Shown one piece after another: positions 1,620 to 19,472 of a stretch of 26,655 bases of DNA. Numbering within the stretch: position 1 is the stretch's first letter; every line of letters starts with the position of its first letter. The stretch is from positions 1-26,655 of the forward strand of contig JBBQWK010000001.1 in NCBI GenBank assembly GCA_038210695.1, given 5' to 3'. Under the pieces are notes generated by a model that saw only the letters and a list, made by a program, of their open reading frames with translations, searched no databases and was not told the DNA's origin. Position numbers and translations under genes: made by a program. This DNA comes from Alphaproteobacteria bacterium. GTDB lineage: Bacteria; Pseudomonadota; Alphaproteobacteria; Micavibrionales; UBA2020.

Positions 1620-2150
1620 ATGACCATCGCCCTTGTTATTATCGCTCTCATCATCGCCGGCCTTGCCGCCTATGCCTCCACCAAGCCGGATACTTTCCGC
1701 ATGGAGCGGAAAACGGTTGTGAATGCACAGCCTGAGAAAATTTTTGCCGTCTTCAGCGATTTTCATGAAGCCAAAAACTGGTCACCGTGGGAACCCCTGG
1801 ACCCGAATATCAAGACCACTTTTAGCGGCGCAGCCTCCGGCGTTGGCGCAATTTATAACTGGGAAGGCAACCGCGATGTCGGCTCCGGCCGGCAGGAAAT
1901 TTTATCGGTGGAACCCGCGCGCCGCGTCACCATCAAGATCAACTTCTATAAACCCTTCAAGGCGGAAAACACCGTGGAATACACCATGGTGCCTGTCGCC
2001 GGCGGCACGGAAGTCGGCTGGGCGATGTTCGGCGCACAGCCTTTCATGGCGAAAATTGTTGCCTTGTTTATGAACTGCGAAAAAATGATGAACGACCAGT
2101 TCGACAAAGGTCTGGCATCGCTCAAAGCCTATGTCGAGAAACAAGGTTAA
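1620..2150 (+). CDS. SRPBCC family protein (polyketide cyclase-like) with N-terminal membrane anchor
   Basis: Hydrophobic N-terminus, then 'PDTFRMERKTVVNAQPEKIF', 'WSPW', 'GVGAIYNWEGN' and 'FDKGLASLK'. AAGGA RBS upstream. Confidence 0.88.
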   Translation: MTIALVIIALIIAGLAAYASTKPDTFRMERKTVVNAQPEKIFAVFSDFHEAKNWSPWEPLDPNIKTTFSGAASGVGAIYNWEGNRDVGSGRQEILSVEPARRVTIKINFYKPFKAENTVEYTMVPVAGGTEVGWAMFGAQPFMAKIVALFMNCEKMMNDQFDKGLASLKAYVEKQG

Positions 2151-2464
2151 GCCGGGCGGCGTGCCAGCGCGGCCTTGAAGTTTTCCCAGTCGTTGAGCGC
2201 GGCATCGAGCAGCGGCAGAATATCATTGCCGCGGCCTTCTTCCCCCGCCCGCTGAATACCCGCCATGTGGGAGCCGACTTTGGGCGCACCGAACTGCAGC
2301 GTGCTGGCCTTGACCACATGGGCGATATTGGCGGCGGTTTCAAAATCATTTTCGGCGACGGCAATGCGGATGGCGTCCAGCAGGCGCTGCGTTTCGCCAA
2401 GGAATCGTGCCAGCGTGTCATCAAATCGCGGGCCGAGCGCAGATCTGGTTTCTTCCATCATCAA
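2147..2464 (-). CDS. Hpt (histidine phosphotransfer) domain protein, possibly the frameshifted C-terminus of the upstream kinase
   Basis: All-helical sequence with 'AANIAHVVKASTLQFGA', matching the Hpt H-x-x-K-G/A-S motif. It overlaps the kinase stop codon (TTGATG junction). Confidence 0.8.
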   Translation of the reverse strand: MMMEETRSALGPRFDDTLARFLGETQRLLDAIRIAVAENDFETAANIAHVVKASTLQFGAPKVGSHMAGIQRAGEEGRGNDILPLLDAALNDWENFKAALARRPA

Positions 2465-5400
2465 GGGTCAATATCGCCGAGCGCCAGCTGCATCGGTTCG
2501 ACATCGCCAAAGGCGGCGGCGAGGCCCGCACCTGAAATTTCAATGCCCTTCTTGGTCTCCGGCAGCCAGGCGTTGATGACACCGAGCAACCGGTCCTGCT
2601 GGATAGGCTTGGTGATATAATCATTCATGCCGGCGGCAATACATTTTTCGCGGTCACCCGCCAGCGCATTGGCGGTGAGGGCGATGATGGGCAGCTGGCT
2701 TTTGCTGTCGCTCATGGCGCGAATGGCACCCGTGGCTTCAAACCCGTCCATCAGCGGCATTTTGCAGTCCATCAATATCAGGTCAAATTCCTGCTCCGTC
2801 GCCAGTTTCACCGCCTCGCGCCCGTTGTTGGCGATGGTCACGGCGATGCCGCTGCGCTGCAGGAAGCTGGTGATCACTACCTGGTTGATGACGCTGTCTT
2901 CGGCCAGCAGGATGCGGGCGTTTTCAAACCACTGCAGCTCGACGCCTGCAGGTGTTGCGGCGCGGTCAAAGACTTCCTCCGCCGGCGGCAGTTCAATAGT
3001 GAAGGCGAAGGTGGAGCCTTTGCCCTCGGCACTGGTGACCTGAATAGCGCCACCCATAAGGCCGACGAGATGGCTGGAAATGGCAAGGCCAAGCCCCGTG
3101 CCGCCGTAGCGCCGGCTGATGGTTTCGTCCGCCTGGCTGAATTTGGAGAAAATGGATTCCACCTTATCCGCCGCAATGCCGATGCCGGTATCGATCACGG
3201 AGAACTTCACTTCCTGCGTGCGGCCGGTCGGCGATACTTTGAGCGTGACGGAACCGTTGCGGGTGAACTTCAGCGCGTTGGCGCAAAGGTTATTGAGGAT
3301 CTGGCGGAGGCGAAGCGGGTCGCCGTACACGAAGCCGGCGCAGCGGGAATCAAAGTCCAGAATAAAGCGCATATCGCCGGCGGTGTCGCGCTGCGGGGAT
3401 ATTTCCACCTGCAGCTGGAAAATTTCTGCCATCTGGGTGCAGAGCTTCTTCAGGTCGAAGGTATATTTTTCAAGCTCCGTCTTCCCCGCCTCGATTTTGC
3501 TGAGGTCGAGGATGTCGGTAATGATGTGCATCAGAGATTCAGCCGACTGCACCACCGTTTCGGCATAATGCCGCTGGTCGCGGTCGAGGCTGGTGCGCAG
3601 CAGCATCTGCGTCATGCCGATGACGGCGTTCATGGGCGTGCGGATTTCGTGGCTCATATCGGCAAGGAAGTTGCTTTTCGCCTGATTGGCAGAGTCCGCC
3701 GCGTCACGCGCATCGCGCAACGCGCCTTCTGCTTCCTTGCGGTCGGTAATGATTTCAGTTGCCATCAGCAAACCGCCGATAGCGCCGGTTGAATCATGCC
3801 ACGGGCGCAGATTCCAGTGCAGCCACAACGCCTTGCCGTTCGACTGCACAATGCGGTCTTCTGATTCGGACGGCGAGCCGGTGCGCAGGCATTCCAGCAA
3901 AATCTGCGTCCATCTTTCCGGCGACTTGTGAAACACCTGAAAGTGCGACATGCCGACAATATTTTCCTGCTTGATGCGGAAATCACTATACCAGCGGTCG
4001 CTGACCATCATGTAGCGCATGTCGCGGTCACACACCGCAAAGGCAACGGGGATGTGCTTGACGAAATAGCGCAGCTGGTCGCTGGAGTGGCGCAACAGGC
4101 GGCGCAAAGCCCGCTGGCGAATGCCGAAGTGCAGGCTGAGCGCGATCAGCGAGGAAATGATAAGGCCGATAATCATGATCGCGCGGGGCAGCTGCGATTG
4201 ATTTTCCATCATGTATGAACTCGTGGGTGAAATGGTAAGCTGCCATTCCTTGCTGCGCACCCTGACCGTCACCATGCTGGCGAGGGGCGCCGCCGTTTTG
4301 TCGGCCTCGCCGCCGCCGGTATATATCGGCTTTCCCTTTTCAAGAACATTGATGGCAAAATCATGGCGGTTGTCATCGGAAAAAAGACTGGTGAACATAT
4401 CGTTCAGGTTAAAGGCGGAGATGAGCATGCCGGCATATTTGTTGTCGATATATAGCGGGTTATAGGCGACGAAGCCGCGGCCGCCCTGCACCAGATCAAC
4501 AGCGTCGGTCATTTCCGGCTTGCGCGTTTCGATGGCGCGGTTAATGGCACGGCGGCGGTTCGGCTCGAAGGCGATGTAGAAATTCTTCATTTTCTTAAGC
4601 GGCTTCAGGGAAACGAGATCCTGCAGGCGCTGGTCTTTATTGGCCCAGCTTAAGGCATAAAGAACGGGATAGGCCTGAAGATATCCCGTCGCATCCTCCT
4701 CCCAGGCTTTTTCGGGCGTGCCTTTTTCTATCTCCCACCGGCTGTCCATGCGGTCAACCGCGCTGAAGAGCCCGCCAAGGTAAAGCTCGGTATTGCGCAC
4801 GATTGATTCACCCTGCGCCGCGATGCCGGCGGCAAGGTCGCGGCGGTGGTCATTTTCCGCCGCCTGTGCGAAGGAGCCCGCCATGACCAGCAGCATGCAG
4901 AACACCGGCAGCGGCAGCCATTCCACCTGCGCGATCGGCTGTTGCGCCACAACGTAGAAAAGGGCAAAGCCGATGCCAAGGAAGCCGGCGGCGGTGTGCA
5001 GCGCCATGCCCACCTTGAAGCCCCAGACATAATAATCTTCGGTGCCGGTCATATACCCCAGCAGCGCCGGCAGGACGATGGCGACCAGCAGACTGCCGCA
5101 GGTTGCAAGCGCCATGATATGCGCTTGCGTTTTGTAGCGCGCCGCCTGGCTGCATAAGCCAAGGCCCAAGCCCGCCAGAACAAAACATAATCCTGTGCCG
5201 ATCGAGAATCTGCCGGGATAGGCAGTGCGCTTGACCAGCGCAGGCTTCACGAACAGCGTATCAATGCCATAGTCTGCGCCGAACAGGTACTGCGACAAGA
5301 TGAAAAGCGCAGCCGCGGCCACAGCAACGCCGATGTACAAAGGAAACCGCCGCGTCTGGCCGCCAAGCCCGATAAATCCCGCACCCAGCATCGCGAAAAG

Positions 5401-5556
5401 CAGCGCCGTGTTGAATTTCATCGGCTCGTAATTCGAGCTTATCTGGACGATGAGGGGAATGTTCAGCAACCAGCCCGCCATAACAGTCAAGCCAAGCATC
5501 AGGGCAAGGCAGCCGGCCGTGCGGAGAATCAGCAGTACTGGGCGGCTAATTTTCAA
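2461..5556 (-). CDS. Membrane hybrid sensor histidine kinase (multi-TM N-terminus, CHASE, PAS, HisKA, HATPase_c, REC)
   Basis: Several N-terminal TM helices. CHASE-like segment 'RWEIEKGTPEKAWEEDA...GGRGFVAYNPLY', PAS 'PVAFAVCDRDMRY...HFQVF', H-box 'FLADMSHEIRTPMN', N-box 'RQILNNLCANALKFT', G1 'DTGIGI', G2 'GGTGLGL', REC 'ILLAEDS..DLILMDCKMP..KP'. TTG start after GGGGA. Confidence 0.93.
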   Translation of the reverse strand: MKISRPVLLILRTAGCLALMLGLTVMAGWLLNIPLIVQISSNYEPMKFNTALLFAMLGAGFIGLGGQTRRFPLYIGVAVAAAALFILSQYLFGADYGIDTLFVKPALVKRTAYPGRFSIGTGLCFVLAGLGLGLCSQAARYKTQAHIMALATCGSLLVAIVLPALLGYMTGTEDYYVWGFKVGMALHTAAGFLGIGFALFYVVAQQPIAQVEWLPLPVFCMLLVMAGSFAQAAENDHRRDLAAGIAAQGESIVRNTELYLGGLFSAVDRMDSRWEIEKGTPEKAWEEDATGYLQAYPVLYALSWANKDQRLQDLVSLKPLKKMKNFYIAFEPNRRRAINRAIETRKPEMTDAVDLVQGGRGFVAYNPLYIDNKYAGMLISAFNLNDMFTSLFSDDNRHDFAINVLEKGKPIYTGGGEADKTAAPLASMVTVRVRSKEWQLTISPTSSYMMENQSQLPRAIMIIGLIISSLIALSLHFGIRQRALRRLLRHSSDQLRYFVKHIPVAFAVCDRDMRYMMVSDRWYSDFRIKQENIVGMSHFQVFHKSPERWTQILLECLRTGSPSESEDRIVQSNGKALWLHWNLRPWHDSTGAIGGLLMATEIITDRKEAEGALRDARDAADSANQAKSNFLADMSHEIRTPMNAVIGMTQMLLRTSLDRDQRHYAETVVQSAESLMHIITDILDLSKIEAGKTELEKYTFDLKKLCTQMAEIFQLQVEISPQRDTAGDMRFILDFDSRCAGFVYGDPLRLRQILNNLCANALKFTRNGSVTLKVSPTGRTQEVKFSVIDTGIGIAADKVESIFSKFSQADETISRRYGGTGLGLAISSHLVGLMGGAIQVTSAEGKGSTFAFTIELPPAEEVFDRAATPAGVELQWFENARILLAEDSVINQVVITSFLQRSGIAVTIANNGREAVKLATEQEFDLILMDCKMPLMDGFEATGAIRAMSDSKSQLPIIALTANALAGDREKCIAAGMNDYITKPIQQDRLLGVINAWLPETKKGIEISGAGLAAAFGDVEPMQLALGDIDP

Positions 5557-5663
5557 AAAAGGTCCCCGAAGTTTAAGCAGGCAGACTGCGCAGGGCCGGT
5601 GGGCAGGTGTTATGGCGCAGCCCTTTTACAGGAATGCTTATGGTCTACTGTGCCTTAAACTTC

Positions 5664-5679
5664 TTACAATAATATTAAC
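5664..5679. promoter_or_regulatory. CtrA-like box (TTAC-N7-TTAAC, one mismatch) in a divergent promoter region
   Basis: Sequence TTACaataataTTAAC compared with consensus TTAA-N7-TTAAC. A TATAAT hexamer lies at 5691-5696. Confidence 0.3.
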
Positions 5680-5771
5680 GTTTATTCGGATATAATACCT
5701 TGTTGGCTTGGGTGGTCAGTCCGGCATCTGCTGTCCGCCTTTTTTGGTCCTTTTTGATGGAAATGCATCCT

Positions 5772-6200
5772 ATGTCCGACCTTACCCCTTCCCGCCTTTC
5801 AGCTCTTGTTCTTGAAGACCAGGCGCTGATGCGCGATATCATCCGCTCGCACCTGACCGCCATGGGCTTCCGCGAGATTGAAGTTGCGGCGAATGTCGGC
5901 GAAGCCGAAAAAATGATGCACCTGAAGCGCTATGATGTGGTGTTTGTCGACTGGGTGCTGCCGGGACAAAGCGGCTATTCGATGATGAAGAAATTCCGCG
6001 AAGACCGCGAATATGATGACGTCGCCTTCGTCATGGTGACCAGTCAGGCGGAAGCGCATTACATGATTGAAGCGATGAAGGCCGGCGCGACGTCTTACAT
6101 CATCAAGCCGATCATCGGCGCCGACTTTAAAGACATCGTCAGCACCGTCATCGAATGGCTCGGCAAGGCCCGCGCGCAAATCGCCAGCCGTAAGGCTTAA
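5772..6200 (+). CDS. Single-domain response regulator (CheY-like receiver)
   Basis: 'ALVLEDQ', phosphoacceptor 'VVFVDWVLP', 'VMVTSQA' and 'YIIKP'; no output domain. ATG 5772 is preferred over the ORF-track start at 5700. Confidence 0.9.
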   Translation: MSDLTPSRLSALVLEDQALMRDIIRSHLTAMGFREIEVAANVGEAEKMMHLKRYDVVFVDWVLPGQSGYSMMKKFREDREYDDVAFVMVTSQAEAHYMIEAMKAGATSYIIKPIIGADFKDIVSTVIEWLGKARAQIASRKA

Positions 6201-6201
6201 A

Positions 6202-6678
6202 TTAATTCTTCAACGACGGCGCGTTTATGCTCGCTGCAGGCTTCTGCTGCTCGACTGCTGCAGGTGCCGTTGCCTTGCCAAAAGATTTGGTGAGGGCGCG
6301 GAGGCCGGCGAGTTTTGATTTGAGGCTGGTGAATTCGGGGCCGCCGAGCAGGTCTTTGCGGTAGCGGGCGAGCAGCGTGCCATTCTCGATATCCCGCGTG
6401 ATGGCCTTTTTAGCTTCAATGTCGCGGCGCGGGGTTTTGGTGGACCAGACGCAGGAGGCGAGCGTGCCGAAGCCGAGGATGCCAACCACCCAGATGGGCG
6501 TTGCGGGGAAAGTTGCCGCCAGCATCATGCCGCCAATGAAAGTGGCGAACAGGGCGACCTTGCCGGTTTCCTCCTTGCTCATCCATTTGCCGTTACGGGC
6601 GGCCTTGCGGTATTCGGCTGCATACAGCGCCTGAATGGCGATTCGGGTTTCATCGACGGGGGAAAGCGGCTCGGCCAT
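6202..6678 (-). CDS. Hypothetical membrane protein (2 TM) with Ala/Pro/Lys-rich tail
   Basis: 158-aa ORF with an AAGGA RBS upstream and a hydrophobic hairpin at about aa 41-78. No recognisable family motif. Confidence 0.7.
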   Translation of the reverse strand: MAEPLSPVDETRIAIQALYAAEYRKAARNGKWMSKEETGKVALFATFIGGMMLAATFPATPIWVVGILGFGTLASCVWSTKTPRRDIEAKKAITRDIENGTLLARYRKDLLGGPEFTSLKSKLAGLRALTKSFGKATAPAAVEQQKPAASINAPSLKN

Positions 6679-6759
6679 GGTGCAGGGGTCCTTCTGGAGA
6701 AACAGGAAGGCATATTCCCTAACTATGAAGCAGCTGTCAACCCAAGTTTCGGAAAATAA

Positions 6760-8379
6760 TCAGCTCAACAGCAGCCGCAGCTTGGATTGCAGCTCCTTGC
6801 CGTCGAAGGGTTTGCAGATGTAATCATCCATCCCTGATTCGAGGCATTTTTCACGGTCGCCATTCAGCGCGTGGGCGGTCATGCCGATGATGGGCATGCG
6901 CGGGCGGTTGCCGTTTTTCTCGCGCTCCCGAATCGCACTGGTCGTTTCCCAGCCGTTCATTTTCGGCATCTGCACATCCATGAGAATGGCGTCGTATTTT
7001 TCCTTCTCGACCTGCGAGAGCGCGGCCTGTCCGTTGGGGGCGACATCATAGCTGTAGCCGAAATTCTCTAAAAATGTGCCGGCGACGAGGACGTTGGGGT
7101 AGTTGTCTTCCACCAGCAAAATTCTTCCAAGCGCGGTGTCGCCGGGGCCTTTGAAAACTTCTGTCGTATGTTGAAGCATATCCGGCGCACGGCCGTGCTT
7201 CAGATCCACCCGGACGGTAAAGGTGGAGCCTTTGTCTTGTGTGCTTTCAACGAGAATATCCCCGTCCATCAACTCGACCAGCTTTTTCGAAATCGAGAGG
7301 CCCAAGCCGCTGCCGCCGTATTTCCGCGTAATGGAATTATCCGCCTGCACAAATTTGTGGAAGATAGATTCCATTTGTCCCGGCGCAATGCCAATGCCCG
7401 TATCGGCTACTGCGATGGAAACACGGCTCGTGCCGTTTGCTGTAGGTACTGCATGGGCAATAATGCGGATCAGCCCGCGGTCGGTGAATTTGACGGCGTT
7501 GCCGCCAAGGTTGGCGATTACCTGTTTCAGGCGCGTCGGGTCGCCCGAATAAATCGCGCCTTGCGGCAAATGATCCTCGACCACGACTTCAAGGTCTTTC
7601 ATGCGCGCCTGAACGGAAACGATGCTGGCGACGTCCTGAATCAGCTGACTGAGGTTGAAGGGGATATTTTCCAGCTCCACCGAGCTTGCCTCGATCTTCG
7701 AAATATCCAGCAGGTCGTTGATCAGCGTCAGCATTGACTCTGCGCTTGTCTGCAGCGTTTCAATGTATTGCAGCTGCTTCGGGGTCAGCGGCCGGCTGGC
7801 GCTTAAAATTTGCGACAGGCCGAAAATAGCGTTCATCGGCGTGCGGATTTCATGGCTCATATTGGCAAGGAATTCCGATTTCGCGCGGTTGGCGGCTTGG
7901 GCCTTGTCGCGTTCGATGGTCAGCTCCTGCGCCTGCCGCTCGCTTTTTTTCAAATAGTCGCGCACCTGATACTGGCGGATGCGGTCGCGTAAGACCGCGC
8001 GGATGGCGCTGAGCAGTTCCAGCACCTGCACCGGCCGGCGGATCAGCGTCATATGCTGCAGCAAGTCCATCTTGCGTCGCATTTCCTGCGTCGGCTCCCG
8101 CGCGGGGGTGAGCAGAATAAGCGGGAAATCGGACCAGGCCGGCTGTTGGTCGATAAGCTGGCCAAGGTGGTTTTCCCGGTCGGAAAAAAGCGCCTCCTCG
8201 GTGATCAATGCGGCACCGGCGCCCTTGGTGATTTCGTAACAGACTTCGGCCATGGAATGGCAGATGTCGCAGTCAACGCCCGCGTCGCGCAGGATGCCGG
8301 CCGTGATCTGGGCATCCTTTGCGGTCGGCGCGAGAACCAGAAAGCGAAGGTCGTTTCCCTGGGCGGTTTCCACCGTCAT
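6760..8379 (-). CDS. Cytoplasmic hybrid histidine kinase (pseudo-receiver, HisKA, HATPase_c, REC), KaiC-associated
   Basis: Degenerate N-terminal receiver ('FLVLAPTAKDA', 'AALITEEAL', 'LIRRP'). H-box 'FLANMSHEIRTPMN', N-box 'RLKQVIANLGGNAVKFT', 'DTGIGI', 'GGSGLGL'. Intact C-terminal REC 'ILLVEDN..ILMDVQMP..CKP'. No TM segments. Confidence 0.93.
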   Translation of the reverse strand: MTVETAQGNDLRFLVLAPTAKDAQITAGILRDAGVDCDICHSMAEVCYEITKGAGAALITEEALFSDRENHLGQLIDQQPAWSDFPLILLTPAREPTQEMRRKMDLLQHMTLIRRPVQVLELLSAIRAVLRDRIRQYQVRDYLKKSERQAQELTIERDKAQAANRAKSEFLANMSHEIRTPMNAIFGLSQILSASRPLTPKQLQYIETLQTSAESMLTLINDLLDISKIEASSVELENIPFNLSQLIQDVASIVSVQARMKDLEVVVEDHLPQGAIYSGDPTRLKQVIANLGGNAVKFTDRGLIRIIAHAVPTANGTSRVSIAVADTGIGIAPGQMESIFHKFVQADNSITRKYGGSGLGLSISKKLVELMDGDILVESTQDKGSTFTVRVDLKHGRAPDMLQHTTEVFKGPGDTALGRILLVEDNYPNVLVAGTFLENFGYSYDVAPNGQAALSQVEKEKYDAILMDVQMPKMNGWETTSAIREREKNGNRPRMPIIGMTAHALNGDREKCLESGMDDYICKPFDGKELQSKLRLLLS

Positions 8380-8398
8380 TTGTACCGCGGCGCGTTCA

Positions 8399-9889
8399 TC
8401 ATTTATTCGCCATGACAGGCATGCCTGTCAGGACACCCTGGAACTGCGACAACGGCTCGCCCACCGTAATGCCTTTGCTGCCGATTTTGAATTCGCGGAT
8501 GCTTCTTTCATGCGGCCCGCTGCGTTTCTTGAGTATAGACACCGCCTGCCGGACTTCGCCCTGCAGCTCGAAATAACGGAACAGCACGACGGAGTCGGAA
8601 AGATAGCTGGTGTCGAGCGGTGTCTGCATCGACTGGCCGAGCAGCCCGTGCTGCGCCACCACCAAGAAAGTCACAACGCCATGATGCCCGAGGTAGGTGA
8701 GCAACTCGTGCATCTGCGACATGAGGAAGCGTTCCTCCGGCATGGCGTTGAGATAGCCGTTGAGACTGTCGATGACCACAACCTTGGCATCGGGCGCGCC
8801 GCTCTTGCCGCCGACGACCTCCCGTACCCTGTGCGCAAATTCTCCCGGCGACATTTCAGTCGGATCGACTGGCTGTAGGTGGATAAAGCCCTCGTTGATA
8901 TATTTTTCCAGTTCCATGCCGATACCCGCCGCACGGTGCAGCATGGTGGCAAGGCTTTCATCAAAGGTGAAGATGACGGCGTGTTGCCCCTGCTTTGCCG
9001 CCTCGACGGCGTATTGCATGGCGAGTGTCGACTTGCCGACGCCCGCCGGTCCCAGTAGAAGCACACTTGTGCCTTCCTCCGGCCCGCCGCCCATCAGGCG
9101 ATCAAACGGCGCAACGCCGCTTTTTAGTTGCTTTTTCACGCCTGGCACCGGTTTATCCGACGTTACGATGCGGGGGAAAATGAACACGCCGCCGGTCTGG
9201 ATGGCGAAATCATGGTAGCCGCCATGGTATTTCTGGCCACGGAATTTCTTGATGCGAATACGTCGCTTCTCCGCACCATATTCGGGGGAAAGCTGTTCAA
9301 GGTCGATCACGCCGTGCGCGATGCTTTCCAGCTGGAAATTTTCGAGCTCAGTAGTTGTCTTGTCGTCAAGAAACAGCACGGTGCAGGCGCGCGTGGTGAA
9401 GAACTTTTTCAATGCCAGAATTTGGCGGCGGAAGCGCAGCGGGCTTTGCGCCAGTAATTTCAGTTCCGACAACGAATCGAGCACGACGCGCGAGGGCTTC
9501 AATTTTTCAACTTCGGCGATAATTGCTTCGGTCGTATTACCCAGCTCGACTTCAGACGGCTGGTACATGGTGTACTGGTTTTCGGCCTGCAGCGCGTCTT
9601 CTGTCGTCAGCAGTTCGAGAATGTTGATGCCGTCCAGTGACCAGCCATGTGATTCCGCCGCCGACTGAAGCTCCGATGCGCTTTCGGACAGTGTCAGGTA
9701 GAGGACGACTTCGTTATTTTTAAGGCCTTCCATCAGGAATTGCATGGCGACGGTAGTTTTGCCAGCCCCCGGCGATCCCTGAACAAGGTACACGCGCTCC
9801 CGCGCGAATCCGCCTCCCAGAATCTGGTCGAGCTCTGCATTGCCAGTCTTTATCCTGGCGCTGGTTTGGTGGCTTGCCGGTTTTTCCAA
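8399..9889 (-). CDS. kaiC: Double-domain KaiC-like (RecA/RAD55 family) P-loop ATPase
   Basis: Two RecA-type domains: 'TGNAELDQILGGG' with Walker A 'GSPGAGKT', and 'SGVAPFDRLMGGG' with Walker A 'GPAGVGKS'. Walker B 'VVLDS'/'VVIDS', arginine-finger motifs 'KFRG'/'KKRSG'. TTG start with AAAGGA RBS. The symbol denotes family membership, not clock function. Confidence 0.92.
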   Translation of the reverse strand: MEKPASHQTSARIKTGNAELDQILGGGFARERVYLVQGSPGAGKTTVAMQFLMEGLKNNEVVLYLTLSESASELQSAAESHGWSLDGINILELLTTEDALQAENQYTMYQPSEVELGNTTEAIIAEVEKLKPSRVVLDSLSELKLLAQSPLRFRRQILALKKFFTTRACTVLFLDDKTTTELENFQLESIAHGVIDLEQLSPEYGAEKRRIRIKKFRGQKYHGGYHDFAIQTGGVFIFPRIVTSDKPVPGVKKQLKSGVAPFDRLMGGGPEEGTSVLLLGPAGVGKSTLAMQYAVEAAKQGQHAVIFTFDESLATMLHRAAGIGMELEKYINEGFIHLQPVDPTEMSPGEFAHRVREVVGGKSGAPDAKVVVIDSLNGYLNAMPEERFLMSQMHELLTYLGHHGVVTFLVVAQHGLLGQSMQTPLDTSYLSDSVVLFRYFELQGEVRQAVSILKKRSGPHERSIREFKIGSKGITVGEPLSQFQGVLTGMPVMANK

Positions 9890-9942
9890 GGATCAAATTC
9901 CTTTGCTCATAAGGGTTGTTACAAATGGCCCATAATTTCGCA

Positions 9943-9968
9943 AACGGGGTTTTTGTGAGTCCGGTTCC
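9943..9968 (-). promoter_or_regulatory. Sigma-EcfG (sigma-T/RpoE2) general stress response promoter for the kaiC-like operon
   Basis: The minus strand reads GGAAC-cggactcacaaaaaccc-CGTT (N17), an exact match to the alphaproteobacterial EcfG consensus GGAAC-N16/17-CGTT. It is correctly oriented, about 55 nt upstream of the start codon. Confidence 0.72.
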
Positions 9969-9997
9969 GTACCAAATAGCAGGTGATTGAAATCATT

Positions 9998-10027
9998 AAA
10001 AAACCGCGCCAACAAATGTTGCGCGGT
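9998..10027 (-). terminator. Rho-independent terminator of tRNA-Gly
   Basis: Hairpin ACCGCGC(C)AACA-AA-TGTTGCGCGGT followed on the minus strand by T6. Confidence 0.7.
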
Positions 10028-10048
10028 CGGGAAAAAATCGGAAGAAAT

Positions 10049-10123
<75 letters not shown>

Positions 10124-10170
10124 GTACATAAAACAGACCAAAGAATCTGGCTTCATGCGAGTGCTATAGG

Positions 10171-10198
10171 GATATGGCATTTGAACCCCTGTTGTCAA
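10171..10198 (-). promoter_or_regulatory. Putative sigma70 promoter for tRNA-Gly
   Basis: TTGACA on the minus strand (10198-10193) followed 16 nt later by CATATC, a weak alphaproteobacterial-type -10. Confidence 0.4.
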
Positions 10199-10269
10199 GA
10201 AAGGAATAGTCCTTCCAACCCGTTGATATATTTTAGCTTTTACGGCCTTATTTCAAAAACTTTGCTTGA

Positions 10270-10299
10270 TTGACATAATTTATGCGGCGGGACTAGGAT
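10270..10299 (+). promoter_or_regulatory. Putative sigma70 promoter for the 10340 ORF
   Basis: TTGACA-N18-TAGGAT, 40 nt upstream of ATG 10340. Confidence 0.5.
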
Positions 10300-10339
10300 G
10301 GCGGCAGTGTTTTCGGCCTTTAAAGATGCGGTTTAAATC

Positions 10340-10741
10340 ATGCCTGCACAATTTATCCAGTACCTGACCTTCCGCACGGCGGCCTATGTCACCGGCAATG
10401 CGCCGGGGCAGGAAGTTGCTACCTATTGGGCCTATGAAACTGCGGTCGAGAGAAAATCGGGCCGTCTGGTGCAGACCGACATTCACCAGAGCAGCCGCAC
10501 CACCGCGCCCTTCACCGATGACATGCCGGAGAAAGACGCGCTTGAGCAGCTGGCAGAGATTGATGCGAAAGCACGCGCCAAATTCCCGCTGCTGCAGGAA
10601 CCCGATAACCGTTTCTGTGGGACAGGCAGCGAATTCGCCAAGGCTATTCCCTACCGCGAGCATCAGGTTTATATCGCGGGCGTGCGGCAGGAAATGCTGA
10701 AGACGCAGGCAACACCGGCCAAGTTCAAGCTGAAGCCCTAA
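10340..10741 (+). CDS. Hypothetical protein
   Basis: 133-aa ORF with host-like codon usage, its own promoter and a downstream terminator. No family recognised. Confidence 0.75.
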   Translation: MPAQFIQYLTFRTAAYVTGNAPGQEVATYWAYETAVERKSGRLVQTDIHQSSRTTAPFTDDMPEKDALEQLAEIDAKARAKFPLLQEPDNRFCGTGSEFAKAIPYREHQVYIAGVRQEMLKTQATPAKFKLKP

Positions 10742-10756
10742 AAAATCTCAAAACAA

Positions 10757-10795
10757 GAAAAAGCCCGCCCCTTTAAAAGGGCGGGCTCTGGTTTT
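10757..10795. terminator. Bidirectional intrinsic terminator between convergent genes
   Basis: 9-bp stem AGCCCGCCC/GGGCGGGCT with an 8-nt loop, A-run on the left and GGTTTT on the right. Confidence 0.8.
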
Positions 10796-10814
10796 CCCTG
10801 TGTAAGGAGGAAAC

Positions 10815-13355
10815 TTAATTCTTCGGCACGTTGGGCCAGTTGACCTTGGCCTTGGTGTCGCGCTCCAGCGCATTGTCATTCACCGGATGGCGGTGGGTGA
10901 CTTTGTTGAATGCGTTTTTGAGCGGGTTGATGATGGTGCGGGCAAGGAAGCCCGGACGGTCAGCGGCTTCACGCAAGTCTTGCGCCCGCACATTCGGCAT
11001 CGGCGGTTCACGCAGGGGCTTGCCTGTGTTGAGGATGGCGGAGATGCGCTTCACGGTGCGCGGGTCATGCACCAGCGCCATGAAGTTTTTATGCTCCAGC
11101 GAACGCAGGTAATCTTGCGTCACCACAACACCGGGACCGGCTTTGTCGCCGCCGGTCAATACCTGCGCCACTTTGTCGGACACAATCACATCGTAGGAAG
11201 TAGCGGCGCCCTTGGCAAAGAAGCCGTCTACCGCCATGGCCAATGCCGCAGCACCGGAAGCGCCGGGCAGCGTCATGTTATGGGGGAGTTCTGGCTTATG
11301 CGTCGGCACCATTTCCAGCGCTTTCTTCTTGGCATCGGCCAGAAGGCGCGCTTTGTTCATGGTCACGCCGTCGGTATCGCGAAGGATCAGCAGATCCTTC
11401 GCTTCAAAAGCGGAGAGGCCGACTTTGGCGGTGGAAATCGTTTCGAAGACTTGCGCCACCGGCGGCATCGGGCCTTTGGGCAGGCGCTTGTTTTGCGTCG
11501 CGCGTGACATCAGCTCGGTCGAGCCACCCCAGGCGGGGAGCAGGCCGACGCCGACTTCAACGAGACCGGGGTAGGTTTCCGCATGCGCCTGCACGTGGTG
11601 GCTGTGCAGCAGAATTTCGCAGCCGCCGCCAAGGGCCTTGCCGGCCGGCGCGGAGACAACGGGGAAATTCGCGTACTTCAGGCGCTTGTATGTATCCTGA
11701 CCCGACTTCACCATTTTATCGACGACCCAGAACTGTTTCGTCTTGATGGCAAGCTCGGCAAGTTTCAGGTTCGCGCCGAGGGAGAAATCATCCGCTTCGT
11801 TGTGGATGACGAGCGCCTTGTATTTGCCGTCGCCTTTTTCAATGAGGTCGCAGGCCTTGTTGATCATCTTCATGGTGAAGAAATCGAGCGAGTTCATTTT
11901 GGAGGTGAACTCGAGGCAGATGACGCCGTCGCCGATATCCCACAGCGCCGCGCCAACTTTGCCGAGGCCGGGGATAGAGCCTGATTCTGCGATGGGCTTG
12001 CTTGCGCGTTTGATGTCGGACAGCAGCAGCACGCCTTCCGGACGGACAATGGCGGAGTAAGAGCCGTCAGCGTTCATCTGGTTCAGCTTGCCATCAACGG
12101 TTTTGTAGAAGGTTTTGCCCTGCGCCTGTTTCAGGAAGGCAGGTACTTTGTCGCCTTCGGCTTCCATGCGCTTCACAACGTAATCGGTGCCGAGTTTATC
12201 GAGCAGCTCGAAGGGGCCGTATTTCCAGTTGTAGCCGAGCTTCATGGCGGTATCGACGGAGTTGATGTCGGCCGCGATGTTGTGGGCGTGTTCTGCCGTA
12301 TAGGCAAGAGTCTGCTTCAACACAGACCAGGCGTAATCGCCGCCTTTGTCGTGGGTTTCGACGAGGGCTTTAACGCCGCCTTTTTTGGCGTTGAGGCCGG
12401 CCTGCATTTTAACTTTTTCGGAAGGGCGTTCTGCGCCCGTTTCAAGGTCAACGGCGAGCTTTTCGCGCTTGTCGTTCAGGCGGTAGAAACCGCCTTTGCC
12501 TTTACGGCCGGTGTAACCATCCGCAATCATTTTTTCAATGACGGGATAGCTTTTGTTGATTTTGACATAGCCGTCATCCGCCGGCAGTTTGGCGGTGAGG
12601 CTTTTGGAGATATGCGGCATGAGGTCAAGGCCGACGAGGTCGACGAGGCCGAAGATGCCGGTTTTCGGAATGCCCATCGGCTGGCCGACAATGCTGTCTG
12701 CTTCTTCAACCGTCAATTTGCGCGAGATTGCTTCGTTGATGGACGCTTGGATCCAGAAGGTGCCGATGCGGTTGGCGATGAAGCCCGGCGTGTCGTTGCA
12801 ATGCACGACGCCCTTGCCCATTTTTTCATCCATGAAGCGGGTGACTTCCGCAATCATTTCGGGGCTGTTGTCTTTCGACGTGATCAGCTCCAGCAGCGGC
12901 ATGTAGCGCGGCGGGTTGAAGAAGTGGGTGATGACGAAATCTTTTTTGAAGGCGTCGGTCTGGCCCGCCACGAGATCATGCAGCGGAATGGTAGAGGTGT
13001 TGGAGGCGATGATGGCGCCGGGTTTGCGGTTGGCGTCAATCTTCTGGAAGATATCAAACTTCACCTTGGGGTCCTCAAAAACCGCCTCGATGATGATGTC
13101 GCAATCCTTCAACCGGCCGATATCGTCTTCGGTGTTGCCGGGGCGGATTTTTTTGGCGTTGCGCTTGTGCATAAGCGGCGCGGGGTTGGTCTTGAACATA
13201 CGCTCGATCGCGCCTTCGGCGATTGCCGTGCGGTTCTGGGATTTGGGATCGACGCGGTCAAGAAGTTCGACCTCGATACCCGCGTTCGCGAGCTGCGCTG
13301 CGATGCCGGCGCCCATGACGCCTGCGCCGATGACTGCTGCTTTTTTAATGGCCAT
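10815..13355 (-). CDS. fadN: 3-hydroxyacyl-CoA dehydrogenase / enoyl-CoA hydratase (FadN-type) with extra C-terminal tail
   Basis: Rossmann 'VIGAGVMGAGIA', 'EAVFED', 'SNTSTI', 'HFFNPPRY', 'PGFIANRIG'. Crotonase domain 'GGGCE' and 'GLVEVGVGLLPAWGG', then 'TGKPLR'. Confidence 0.93.
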   Translation of the reverse strand: MAIKKAAVIGAGVMGAGIAAQLANAGIEVELLDRVDPKSQNRTAIAEGAIERMFKTNPAPLMHKRNAKKIRPGNTEDDIGRLKDCDIIIEAVFEDPKVKFDIFQKIDANRKPGAIIASNTSTIPLHDLVAGQTDAFKKDFVITHFFNPPRYMPLLELITSKDNSPEMIAEVTRFMDEKMGKGVVHCNDTPGFIANRIGTFWIQASINEAISRKLTVEEADSIVGQPMGIPKTGIFGLVDLVGLDLMPHISKSLTAKLPADDGYVKINKSYPVIEKMIADGYTGRKGKGGFYRLNDKREKLAVDLETGAERPSEKVKMQAGLNAKKGGVKALVETHDKGGDYAWSVLKQTLAYTAEHAHNIAADINSVDTAMKLGYNWKYGPFELLDKLGTDYVVKRMEAEGDKVPAFLKQAQGKTFYKTVDGKLNQMNADGSYSAIVRPEGVLLLSDIKRASKPIAESGSIPGLGKVGAALWDIGDGVICLEFTSKMNSLDFFTMKMINKACDLIEKGDGKYKALVIHNEADDFSLGANLKLAELAIKTKQFWVVDKMVKSGQDTYKRLKYANFPVVSAPAGKALGGGCEILLHSHHVQAHAETYPGLVEVGVGLLPAWGGSTELMSRATQNKRLPKGPMPPVAQVFETISTAKVGLSAFEAKDLLILRDTDGVTMNKARLLADAKKKALEMVPTHKPELPHNMTLPGASGAAALAMAVDGFFAKGAATSYDVIVSDKVAQVLTGGDKAGPGVVVTQDYLRSLEHKNFMALVHDPRTVKRISAILNTGKPLREPPMPNVRAQDLREAADRPGFLARTIINPLKNAFNKVTHRHPVNDNALERDTKAKVNWPNVPKN

Positions 13356-16490: not shown

Positions 16491-17861
16491 TTACGCTTTC
16501 ACGATGTTGTCGCGGCGGGTGATGCCGGCAAGCGCATTGCGCGTGTCGACTACGAGGTCGGCTTCCTTCGCGATCATGCCATAATCAACGGCGTCATGGT
16601 CGGTGACGATGACCACCGCGTCCTGCGCAGCAATCGTGCGGGCGTCGAGCGCTACCGATTTCAGGCCATTAAAGGCGGCATGTTCGCGGATGGGGCCGAT
16701 GACGGGCACATGCGGATCGTGGAAAATGATTTCCGCCTTGCGCGCCTTCAATAGCTCCATAATGGCGAAGGCGGGGCTTTCGCGGATATCTTCGACGTTT
16801 TTCTTGTAGGCGACGCCGATGAGCATGATTTTCGCGCCGTTCAGCGATTTTGCGGCGCGGGCGTCCAGCGTTTCCGCCAGACGGTTGACGACAAAGCGCG
16901 GCATGGAAATGTTGATTTCACCGGCAAGCTCGATGAATTTCGTCGCGATGCCATATTCCCGCGCTTTCCATGTCAAATAGAATGGGTCAATGGGAATGCA
17001 GTGACCGCCAAGGCCGGGGCCCGGGTAGAAGGGCATGTAGCCGAAGGGCTTGGTTTTGGCGGCTTCAATCACTTCCCAGATATCGATGCCCATGGCGTCG
17101 TAAATGATTTTCAGTTCATTGACGAGCGCGATGTTGACGGAGCGGAACACGTTTTCGGTCAGCTTCACTGCTTCCGCCGTTTGCGTTGACGACACCGCAA
17201 CCGTTTTTGACAGGAACTGGTCGTACATGGTCTGCGCGATCTTCAGCGCGGCGGGGCCGTCGCCGCCGACAACTTTGGGAATGATGGCGGTATGGTATTT
17301 GGCATTGCCGGGGTCTTCGCGTTCCGGCGAGAAGGCGAGGTAAAAATCAACGCCGGACTTTAGCCCGCTGGCTTCTTCCAAAATCGGGCGAAGCAGATCA
17401 TGCGTCGTGCCGGGATAGGTGGTGGATTCCAGCACAATCAACTGGCCCGCACGGATATGCTTTGCGACGGCTTCCGCGGTTCTGATGACATAGGTCATGT
17501 CCGGTTCGCGGTTCTTGTTCAGCGGCGTCGGCACGCAGAGCAAAACGGCATCGCATTCGGCAAGGCGGGTGAAATCGGCGGTGGGGTGGAATTTGTTATC
17601 GCCGACAAAAGTTTTGACCTTCGCATCATCAACGCCGCCGATATAGGACTGGCCGGCCTTCAGGCGCTCGATCTTCTTCACATCGATATCAAAGCCCAAG
17701 GCCGTAAAGCCCTTGTCGCAAATGGCGCAGGCCAGCGGCAGGCCGACATAGCCAAGGCCGATGACGCCGATTTTCGCCTGCTTGGACGTATAAAGCTGGC
17801 ACAGCGCCTCCACATCAGGGGTGGTTTTGACGGTGACGGATTTCAGCGGCTGGACGGTCAT
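16491..17861 (-). CDS. Nucleotide-sugar dehydrogenase (UDP-N-acetylglucosamine 6-dehydrogenase, WbpA/TviB-like)
   Basis: 'GLGYVGLPLA', 'CVPTP', 'ESTTYPGTT', 'FSPEREDPGN', catalytic 'GPGLGGHCIPIDP' and 'GVAYKKNVEDIRESP'. ATG 17861 is preferred to TTG 17879. Confidence 0.92.
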   Translation of the reverse strand: MTVQPLKSVTVKTTPDVEALCQLYTSKQAKIGVIGLGYVGLPLACAICDKGFTALGFDIDVKKIERLKAGQSYIGGVDDAKVKTFVGDNKFHPTADFTRLAECDAVLLCVPTPLNKNREPDMTYVIRTAEAVAKHIRAGQLIVLESTTYPGTTHDLLRPILEEASGLKSGVDFYLAFSPEREDPGNAKYHTAIIPKVVGGDGPAALKIAQTMYDQFLSKTVAVSSTQTAEAVKLTENVFRSVNIALVNELKIIYDAMGIDIWEVIEAAKTKPFGYMPFYPGPGLGGHCIPIDPFYLTWKAREYGIATKFIELAGEINISMPRFVVNRLAETLDARAAKSLNGAKIMLIGVAYKKNVEDIRESPAFAIMELLKARKAEIIFHDPHVPVIGPIREHAAFNGLKSVALDARTIAAQDAVVIVTDHDAVDYGMIAKEADLVVDTRNALAGITRRDNIVKA

Positions 17862-17984
17862 GGCTTTGCCTTTGCTCAAAAAAACAGGCCATGTTTTAAC
17901 ATATTGATGAATGAAATGAAAGGGTTAATAAGGTTTGTGCATCAAGCGGTTAGCGCCGCCTGCCCTGCCTGCCCTTTGCCCCAT

Positions 17985-18020
17985 AAAAAAAACGGCGCCC
18001 GTAACGGCGCCGTTTTTTTT
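17985..18020. terminator. Bidirectional-type intrinsic terminator after the HNH-like gene
   Basis: A8-CGGCGCC-loop(6)-GGCGCCG-T8, a perfect 15-bp inverted repeat. Confidence 0.9.
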
Positions 18021-18035
18021 ACATTACCGCAGCGT

Positions 18036-19472
18036 TTAACGCTGGCGGATTTTTTTGCCGTATTCGTCGCGGACGACGGGGCCGCGCGCCGGACGGTTGT
18101 CCTGCTGCACATTCCGGTTGTCGTTGCTGTTGTTGTTGAAGCCCTTGCGGACATCGCGCTGTTCGCGGATGGCCTTGCCTTCCAGATCAAGCCGGTCGCA
18201 AACCTGCTTGAGGCTTTTTTCGATGGCGTTGAACTTGGCGTTCATCTCGAAAGCTTCTTCGAAGGGCAGCGCCTGAACATCAAAGCGCAGGTCATTCATG
18301 CGCGGGCTGCGGAAGAAGTGGGCAAATTCCCACATCGCGGCACGCTCTTTGGGGCTGTTGAGGTTATTGGCGAGGCGGTCAAACAGCGTCACCGTATAAT
18401 CCGTCATGTCCTTCACGGCGGGGCGGACCATTTTGTCGAAATGGTCGCCGGCATCGGCGCGGACGACTGCGTCGGTGAAGGCCTTGCGCAGGCTGCCCGG
18501 CGCAGATGCGTCTTCTTTATGTGCGAGCTCGACGACGGTGCCCTTGAGGCTGTCGGCCTTTTCAACAAGGTCAACGACCGTGTCAAAGACCGTTTCTATG
18601 GAGCGCAGCACGTCAATTTTGTTGAGTGTCTGGCCGAGGACATACTGGCCATGCTCGACGCGGCGGAAATCATCAATCTCGCGCACTTCAATGCCAGCGA
18701 GGCGGTGGGAGGCTTTCAGTTTCGGGCAGAGGTAGCCGTTATATTGCGCGTTGCGCTCCGGCGTCATCATCAAAATCCAGCGGCCCATGCCGGGGGAGGT
18801 GTAGCTGGCCTTCTGCAGGTCGTTCAGCTCGTTCTTGAATTCGTGGATTTTCTCCGGCAGCAGCATGAAGTTGCCGAAGAAGTTGGGGTGATACTTGGGG
18901 CCGAAGCCGGGCTGGTCGGGATCAACATCTTTCGTCTTGCCGTAGCGGCCGGAGCCGGCGCGCTCGATAATATGGTCGACGTTGAGGGAATAGAGCTCGC
19001 CATTTTCATTGGCGGGATCAAGGCCGTTCTTCATGCGGTCAACGCCCGCCTGGCAGATGCCGAGGTCCAGCAGCTCTTTTTCAAAATTGTCAGCGAGGAA
19101 GCGGATGAAGGACGGGCGCACTTCGAAGGTGTATTCGTTCTTCAGTTTCGCGTTTTCATCGGTCGTGATGCGGTTGTAGAAAACGGGGACGATGCGGAAG
19201 CCTTCGGGAATTTCCTTTAAGATCTGCTCGAACATCTTCTGGTCTTTGACGGCGTCGGCGGCGGTCTGGAAGCGGTCACGCGGGTGGTCACCCTGATGCA
19301 GGCCCTGCGCTTCGCGGCGCTTGGCAAGCACCACGCGTTCGGACAAATCTTTGCGGATATCGGCGATAAGGTCTTCAACCGAGGGCTGCTTCGGCACGGT
19401 TATATGATGGTCGAGGAAATCCTTCGACGTTGTGATTTCGGTAATCGTATCGGCGGAAACGCGTTTCCCCAT
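18036..19472 (-). CDS. Orphan protein with HNH (beta-beta-alpha-metal) endonuclease-like motif and helical C-terminal region
   Basis: GGGAG RBS and ATG 19472. Motif 'NVDHIIERAGSG...NFFGNFMLLPEKIHEFKN' carries the H, N and H residues. The CDS call is firm; the function is inferred. Confidence 0.75.
   Translation of the reverse strand: MGKRVSADTITEITTSKDFLDHHITVPKQPSVEDLIADIRKDLSERVVLAKRREAQGLHQGDHPRDRFQTAADAVKDQKMFEQILKEIPEGFRIVPVFYNRITTDENAKLKNEYTFEVRPSFIRFLADNFEKELLDLGICQAGVDRMKNGLDPANENGELYSLNVDHIIERAGSGRYGKTKDVDPDQPGFGPKYHPNFFGNFMLLPEKIHEFKNELNDLQKASYTSPGMGRWILMMTPERNAQYNGYLCPKLKASHRLAGIEVREIDDFRRVEHGQYVLGQTLNKIDVLRSIETVFDTVVDLVEKADSLKGTVVELAHKEDASAPGSLRKAFTDAVVRADAGDHFDKMVRPAVKDMTDYTVTLFDRLANNLNSPKERAAMWEFAHFFRSPRMNDLRFDVQALPFEEAFEMNAKFNAIEKSLKQVCDRLDLEGKAIREQRDVRKGFNNNSNDNRNVQQDNRPARGPVVRDEYGKKIRQR

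Follow-up and report, generated by a model that had tools for sequence, protein, structure and literature searches.

A KaiB-less KaiC-like ATPase paired with a soluble hybrid histidine kinase that carries an N-terminal pseudo-receiver

Does a KaiC-like ATPase that is encoded without KaiA or KaiB signal to the histidine kinase encoded right behind it, and through which part of that kinase? The question is raised by a gene pair in a 26,655-nucleotide (nt) stretch of DNA, here called the window, which covers positions 1 to 26,655 of contig JBBQWK010000001.1 (assembly GCA_038210695.1). The DNA comes from a sediment alphaproteobacterium that has not been cultured; its nearest relatives in the database carry the label Micavibrio. 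The original prediction described the pair as a double-domain KaiC ATPase followed 19 nt later, on the same strand, by a hybrid kinase that has no transmembrane segment and a degenerate receiver as its sole input module. Coordinates and Pfam domains agree with this layout, and hydropathy, Pfam, the AlphaFold2 fold, and the loss of the active site agree with the description of the kinase. Judged by their length and very strong family scores, both open reading frames (ORFs) are genuine genes and not chance. The pairing of this KaiC gene with the N-terminal domain of the kinase (N-domain) is real and near-invariable across many phyla. The pair is laid out as follows.

8399-9889, minus strand: KaiC-like double-domain ATPase gene (496 amino acids [aa], TTG start; P0001)
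8380-8398, minus strand: spacer of 19 nt from the kaiC stop codon (TGA) to the kinase ATG
6760-8379, minus strand: soluble hybrid histidine kinase gene (539 aa, ATG start; P0002)

A survey of homologous neighborhoods was one of the checks proposed in the original prediction, and the pair proved to be kept in both directions. An alignment of the N-domain was scanned against one genome per prokaryotic species. At least 440 relatives were confirmed in this way, and the analysis continued with the 80 best loci. These loci span Acidobacteriota, Planctomycetota, Alpha-, Beta-, and Gammaproteobacteria, Gemmatimonadota, Verrucomicrobiota, Myxococcota, and others. Two of the 80 were uninformative, as the contig holds no upstream DNA, and in 77 of the 78 informative loci the gene immediately upstream, in the same orientation, was a KaiC gene. 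Complete upstream KaiC genes scored about 440 to 890 bits with phmmer; scores were lower for those truncated at a contig end or divided between frames. The only true exception was found in a Singulisphaera metagenome-assembled genome (MAG), where one kinase (locus L049, 3247-4875) has no adjacent KaiC gene. As the same MAG holds a complete pair (locus L037), one KaiC may serve two kinases in this genome. The reverse test was run on 201 genomes of the window's class, 10 of which, the window's own included, had a KaiC match at E <=1e-40. The N-domain was present downstream of all 7 foreign KaiC genes with at least 38% identity; two KaiC genes at ~30% identity, which belong to other KaiC clades, had no N-domain downstream.

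The two genes are also closely spaced. In most loci, a start codon in the kinase frame overlaps the KaiC stop codon or lies no more than 30 nt away from it, an overlap of 4 nt being the commonest arrangement under a heuristic choice of start codons. The 4-nt overlap is annotated in Agrobacterium fabrum pAt and was likewise seen in the closest relative of the window (locus L008). The window's own genome has a single copy of the N-domain. An exhaustive profile search of 1.84 billion cluster representatives matched 5,445 proteins at E <=0.001, 4,276 at 1e-10, and 2,067 at 1e-30, giving a family size of about 2,000 to 5,000 clusters at 50% identity, and among the 150 best matches listed, nearly all have the domain at the N terminus. 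Plasmid and chromid records with the N-domain numbered 224, chiefly from Sinorhizobium, Agrobacterium, Sphingobium, and Rhizobium. The family has no Pfam model. In public annotation, its proteins appear only as "sensor histidine kinase," "ATP-binding protein," or "response regulator" and the KaiC partner as "gvpD / ATPase domain-containing protein."

The N-domain is one of four segments that can be recognized in the kinase.

8026-8346, minus strand: N-terminal pseudo-receiver, aa 12-118 (AlphaFold2 fold, Foldseek, profile, and conservation)
7885-8025, minus strand: helix alpha-5 of the pseudo-receiver, aa 119-165, with the invariant R131-x-R133-x-R135-Q-Y motif (model and conservation)
7198-7884, minus strand: kinase core, with HisKA at aa 166-231 (H-box His176) and HATPase_c at aa 279-394 (Pfam)
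6778-7122, minus strand: canonical C-terminal receiver of the hybrid kinase, aa 420-534 (PF00072, E 9.2e-28)

Residues 1 to 160 of the kinase had no match in Pfam. An AlphaFold2 model of the N-domain, built on an alignment of homologues of kinase residues 1 to 150 (predicted local distance difference test [pLDDT] score, 88.6), has the five-fold beta-alpha topology known from CheY. Foldseek returned 236 matches in the PDB at E <=0.001, and the 50 matches listed were almost all receiver domains. Likewise, the family profile reached the PhoB receiver over its whole length (E 5e-4), and a language-model search with the N-domain ended among response regulators. The domain thus has a CheY-like (beta-alpha)5 fold. 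The residues that support phosphorylation in receivers have been replaced. Among 81 family members, the Asp-Asp pair is replaced by Ala17-Pro18 (Pro in 77 of 81), and the acceptor position is occupied by Glu61 (Glu in 72, Asp in 7, and Gln in 2); Glu62, the next residue, is invariant. Thr91 has been retained, and the conserved Lys has become an invariant Arg115, followed by Pro116. The phosphorylation chemistry of receivers is therefore not retained in this domain. As the pocket, the acceptor Asp, and the Lys are lost and no Pfam model matches, the N-terminal module is a pseudo-receiver, i.e., a receiver fold with a degenerate active site.

The family has signatures of its own, namely L-A-P-x-G-R-D, Q79-P-x-W82-S83-D84-[FL]-P86, and E-R115-P116, as well as R131-x-R133-x-R135-Q136-Y137-x-x-R140 in helix alpha-5. 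In the model of the full-length kinase (pLDDT, 89.2), one helix extends over residues 119 to 194 and passes through His176. Since this helix is unbroken, the pseudo-receiver is mechanically continuous with the dimerization and histidine phosphotransfer (DHp) bundle. A specific kinship to the pseudo-receivers of CikA or KaiA was also considered and rejected: the family profile search retrieved none of these domains, and profile and fold searches placed neither ahead of ordinary receivers.

The remainder of the kinase is conventional in sequence and variable in composition. H176, N290, N294, D326, G328, and G330 are nearly invariant across the family. As the highest 19-residue Kyte-Doolittle mean is only 1.12, the protein is considered soluble and without a membrane segment. 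HATPase_c was found in 77 of the 81 members, HisKA in 76, and a C-terminal receiver in 42; some members carry PAS or GAF inserts, and those from Rhizobiaceae have HWE/HisKA_2 cores. About half of the members consist of the N-domain and the kinase core alone. The N-domain is therefore the constant part of an otherwise variable kinase, which is the pattern expected of a KaiC-coupling module.

The protein encoded upstream, at 8399-9889, belongs to the double-domain KaiC family, with two PF06745 domains (Pfam; whole-protein E 9.8e-74).

9173-9853, minus strand: CI-like RecA/KaiC domain (PF06745, E 3.9e-43; Walker A GSPGAGKT; catalytic pair Ser68-Glu69)
8453-9124, minus strand: CII-like domain (PF06745, E 4.1e-30; Walker A GPAGVGKS; catalytic pair Asp310-Glu311)

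Solved KaiC chains align with this protein from end to end (best E 8.9e-50), and both Walker A motifs are conserved across the 73 relatives in which KaiC residues were counted. The CI catalytic pair is Glu-Glu in clock KaiC and Ser68-Glu69 here; across the relatives, Ser is the first residue in 64 of 73 and Glu the second in 70 of 73. The CII phosphosite motif reads D426-T-S428-Y429, in which Ser428 aligns with KaiC S431 and Tyr429 with T432. Position 428 is Ser in 59 and Thr in 14 of the 73 proteins, and Y429 and D426 are found in all 73. Because the T432 position is an invariant Tyr, only one conserved phosphosite is left in this Ser-Tyr (S-Y) subfamily. Thr423 aligns with KaiC T426. Beyond its A-loop-aligned segment, the protein continues for 4 residues; the tails of its relatives measure 4 to 24 residues.

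The protein thus lacks both the Glu-Glu CI pair and the S431/T432 double phosphosite of circadian KaiC. It also fell well short of the circadian-KaiC models (NCBIfam NF006799 / TIGR02655): the scores were 249 bits, where the cut-off is 408, and 150.7 bits, where it is 546. Going by these residues, KaiC3-like is the best available label. KaiC3-like proteins have been described as the most common type of KaiC outside cyanobacteria, some with Tyr at the second phosphosite, and their A-loop and KaiA-contact residues are poorly conserved (Schmelling et al. 2017, PMC5520375).

A family search of the window gave no match to KaiA or KaiB, in agreement with the original prediction, and KaiA was likewise without a match in the whole of the window's own assembly (2.03 Mb in 377 contigs). 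A genome-wide search for KaiB, also proposed in that prediction, gave no match above the cut-off, and the genome is KaiB-less as far as an assembly that is 75.6% complete allows. A weak KaiB match of 17 bits on contig C14, located inside a 319-aa frame, was rejected as below the cut-off. Four of five other carriers of the pair were also without KaiB, namely a Micavibrio-labelled MAG, Nitrospirillum amazonense, Bradyrhizobium jicamae, and Sphingobium chungbukense. The fifth, Asticcacaulis solisilvae (L090), carries the pair and, on another contig (C10, 6744-6989), a bona fide KaiB of 98 bits. This KaiB presumably belongs to a separate KaiBC system, and its presence in a pair-carrying genome indicates that both KaiC systems can coexist. 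That the module itself is KaiB-less is well supported.

Further signaling genes are encoded downstream of the pair.

6202-6678, minus strand: ORF158, 158 aa, directly after the kinase (one hydrophobic stretch, highest 19-residue Kyte-Doolittle mean 1.77)
5700-6200, plus strand: stand-alone single-domain response regulator, convergent with the operon (PF00072, E 2.9e-21; conserved in L008)
2461-5556, minus strand: membrane CHASE-PAS hybrid histidine kinase/receiver (Pfam; same arrangement in L008)
2147-2467, minus strand: histidine phosphotransfer (Hpt) domain frame, directly after the CHASE kinase (PF01627, 24.6-24.8 bits)

The order of these four genes is kept in L008, the nearest relative. 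A single-domain receiver in the neighborhood is not universal across the 80 loci. The frame at 2147-2467 encodes the only Hpt domain in the cluster. The CHASE kinase frame stops at a TGA (2461-2463) that overlaps an ATG, and "...GDIDP" and the stop are followed, in another frame, by "MMEETRS..."; in the L008 counterpart, the Hpt domain is fused in frame in a protein of 1136 aa that reads "...GDIDPVMMEET..." The split in the window could be either a real, translationally coupled stand-alone Hpt domain or a 1-nt error in the MAG assembly. ORF158 has a counterpart of 160 aa in L008. Together with ORF127 (10280-10663), it was considered as a conserved part of the module and rejected, as neither matched a Pfam family or had a homologue in the 80 loci; on these comparisons, ORF158 is a lineage-specific add-on.

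The cassette is surrounded by housekeeping genes, including those for a thiolase, a FadB-like protein, TerC, UDP-glucose dehydrogenase, a lipoyl ligase, malic enzyme, and MgtE. Promoter and terminator counts in a scan of positions 5500 to 10900 were at shuffle expectation (4 versus 3.1 and 8 versus 7.6), and no operon boundaries were therefore set. Just downstream of the fadB-like gene, at 10760-10789, lies a strong bidirectional hairpin of 13 pairs, 8 of them G-C, which is followed by a T run. No other intrinsic terminator near the cassette is convincing, and this one probably shields the kaiC operon from upstream transcription. Elsewhere in the window, two long ORFs overlap on opposite strands, one of 606 aa at 17400-19220 (plus strand) and one of 478 aa at 18036-19472 (minus strand); the latter matched no Pfam family.

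What, then, might the pair do? We think it probable that KaiC is the input and that its state, read by the pseudo-receiver and the Arg-rich helix, sets the balance between kinase and phosphatase activity. The KaiC-like protein would most likely be a hexameric ATPase and autokinase with one Ser/Thr phosphosite (Ser428) that serves the kinase of the next gene as its cytoplasmic input or timer. This kinase appears to have no ligand-binding sensor, and its pseudo-receiver, predicted not to be phosphorylatable, would be rigidly joined by the long helix to the DHp bundle at His176. We infer that KaiC touches the pseudo-receiver and its Arg-rich helix and in this way reports its nucleotide state or its Ser428-phosphorylation state, and such contact would shift the kinase/phosphatase balance via the continuous helix. 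It is about as likely as not that the N-domains form a dedicated family which docks directly on the KaiB-free S-Y KaiC ring and signals down one helix into the kinase. From His176, phosphate would pass to the Asp of the C-terminal receiver. As the KaiC-linked kinase has no Hpt domain of its own, the next step would probably be the neighboring Hpt domain, followed by the stand-alone receiver at 5700-6200. A relay through these two neighbors is a reasonable proposal given the gene content of the cluster, and the CHASE-PAS kinase may share it. Sensing of ATP/ADP by KaiC, which the original prediction had suggested, is plausible in the light of what is known of cyanobacterial and Rhodobacter KaiC. 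The likely role would be in stress, starvation, or growth-phase signaling and not in a self-sustained clock.

Adjacency and co-inheritance carry no direction, and control could also run the opposite way, with the kinase or its receiver domains regulating the KaiC-like protein as the output, for example a remodelling or hub ATPase, which the pseudo-receiver merely recruits. The second, ligand-sensing CHASE kinase of the cluster could give such a system a real input. However, many member kinases have no sensor of their own, about half being N-domain and core alone, and would have nothing to sense without KaiC. Furthermore, KaiC is encoded first, and cyanobacterial KaiC acts upstream of SasA and CikA, as is well established; we therefore consider reversed control unlikely. 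An alternative that we regard as similarly improbable is that the pseudo-receiver dimerizes or binds a small molecule, e.g., a nucleotide second messenger at its Arg-rich helix, and that KaiC contacts the kinase elsewhere or is only co-regulated with it. Kinases with an internal pseudo-receiver that binds cyclic di-GMP are known (Caulobacter ShkA), the invariant R131-x-R133-x-R135-Q-Y-x-x-R140 cluster and the Q-P-x-W-S-D-x-P loop resemble a ligand- or phosphate-binding surface, and the kinase at L049 has the N-domain and no adjacent KaiC. Mutual linkage with one KaiC subfamily (77/78 and 7/7) would nevertheless be hard to explain for a generic sensor, the genome of L049 has the full pair L037, and the N-terminal 138 residues of the Pseudomonas putida kinase alone pull down KaiC.

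For the pair to be a true timer, whether of the hourglass type or a damped oscillator, an unrecognized substitute for KaiB would be needed, possibly the pseudo-receiver itself. Conservation extends to the equivalents of Ser431 and Thr426, to the two Walker A motifs, and to the catalytic pair of CII; purple bacteria have KaiBC hourglass timers (PDB 8DBA family; PMC4794148), and the phosphorylation of Pseudomonas KaiC varies over time. Yet only one phosphosite is conserved, with an invariant Tyr at the T432 position, neither KaiB nor KaiA was found, and the protein has a short tail and no extended C-terminal coiled coil. A sediment bacterium has no evident need for a daily clock, and the changes in Pseudomonas track culture age and not daily cues. 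In view of these points, a true timer seems very unlikely.

Several observations weigh against control of the kinase by direct contact with KaiC. In a mirror-tree comparison, KaiC distances correlated with those of the pseudo-receiver (r 0.76) about as well as with those of the kinase core (r 0.73), and the pseudo-receiver was thus not singled out; near-equal correlations of this kind are expected of genes that are inherited together. The CI ATPase activity may be weak, given that the first catalytic Glu is missing in the entire subfamily. The absence of KaiB from the window's own genome is not proven, because the assembly is incomplete. For the relay, the PF01627 match of the Hpt domain is barely above the cut-off, and its frame is separate from the CHASE kinase. 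The sequence was present in sediment and soil metagenome DNA only and in no RNA run. Lastly, the N terminus of the P. putida kinase was named PAS by the authors who described it, whereas a receiver fold was found here, and the two may not be the same domain; when the window kinase and the Agrobacterium pAt kinase were used as seeds for word-based protein searches, no Pseudomonas entry was returned.

If direct docking is true, the pair would represent a third, KaiB-independent route from KaiC to two-component output, present in thousands of bacteria of at least 8 phyla. KaiC homologues are far commoner outside cyanobacteria than inside, and their role there is poorly understood. The cassette described here is a compact, soluble two-protein version, an ATPase ring plus a kinase whose only input is a dead receiver. 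Its strict two-way linkage gives a precise experimental target and flags a large domain family that annotation pipelines leave unnamed. The receiver-fold identity of the partner N-domain, with such a signature and such strict linkage, was not stated in the literature searched, and this under-described putative docking domain is the part still worth experiment.

Among known systems, the cyanobacterial kinases SasA and CikA offer a possible functional parallel, as in that system histidine kinases under the control of a KaiC hexamer pass their signal to a response regulator. SasA docks via a KaiB-like, thioredoxin-fold N-domain, and the pseudo-receiver of CikA is C-terminal and binds KaiC via fold-switched KaiB. 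In contrast, the receiver fold of the kinase described here sits at the N terminus, fused to the DHp helix, and no KaiB accompanies the pair; neither CikA-type nor SasA-type docking is therefore indicated. The analogy to CikA drawn in the original prediction accordingly holds insofar as both proteins carry a pseudo-receiver and fails in its position, in the involvement of KaiB, and in the profile search, which found no CikA. Cyanobacterial KaiC3, in turn, works with KaiB3, whereas the subfamily studied here is KaiB-free, has Ser in place of the first CI Glu, and has a dedicated kinase partner.

The KaiBC timers of Rhodobacter sphaeroides and Rhodopseudomonas palustris (PDB 8DBA/8DB3; PMC4794148) resemble the cassette in being built on a proteobacterial KaiC without KaiA, and the KaiC-like protein matches PDB 8DB3 with an E value of 1.5e-41. 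However, these hourglass timers depend on KaiB, and their KaiC has a Ser-Ser site and is greatly extended at the C terminus (568 aa), while the protein here measures 496 aa and has S-Y and no KaiB. Closer in gene order are rhizobial and sphingomonad replicons (e.g., Agrobacterium fabrum pAt, Sinorhizobium, and Sphingobium), which encode the same N-domain directly after a KaiC-like gene. The partners in Rhizobiaceae are short HWE/HisKA_2 kinases without a C-terminal receiver, unlike the hybrid kinase of the window.

The closest published systems are those of Pseudomonas, whose genomes have no KaiB (Terrettaz et al., bioRxiv 10.1101/2022.01.26.477890). The same study reported conserved neighborhoods of KaiC, kinase, and single-domain regulator in environmental Pseudomonas (P. 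putida KT2440 PP_3834-PP_3835 and P. protegens CHA0). It also demonstrated KaiC-kinase binding by two-hybrid assay and co-immunoprecipitation, for which kinase residues 1 to 138 suffice, and found that KaiC phosphorylation follows culture age, with a role in stress and not as a clock. The module type, the absence of KaiB, and the KaiC-kinase contact have thus already been published for Pseudomonas, and the original statement that the mechanism of such pairs is largely uncharacterized was too strong, as binding and neighborhoods were on record (bioRxiv 10.1101/2022.01.26.477890). A double-domain KaiC without KaiA or KaiB, an adjoining co-oriented (hybrid) kinase, and a single-domain receiver nearby are common to the Pseudomonas modules and to the cassette described here. 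With its conserved co-oriented KaiC/kinase adjacency and its nearby single-domain regulator, the cassette belongs to the known KaiB-free KaiC-kinase modules and opens no new class of system.

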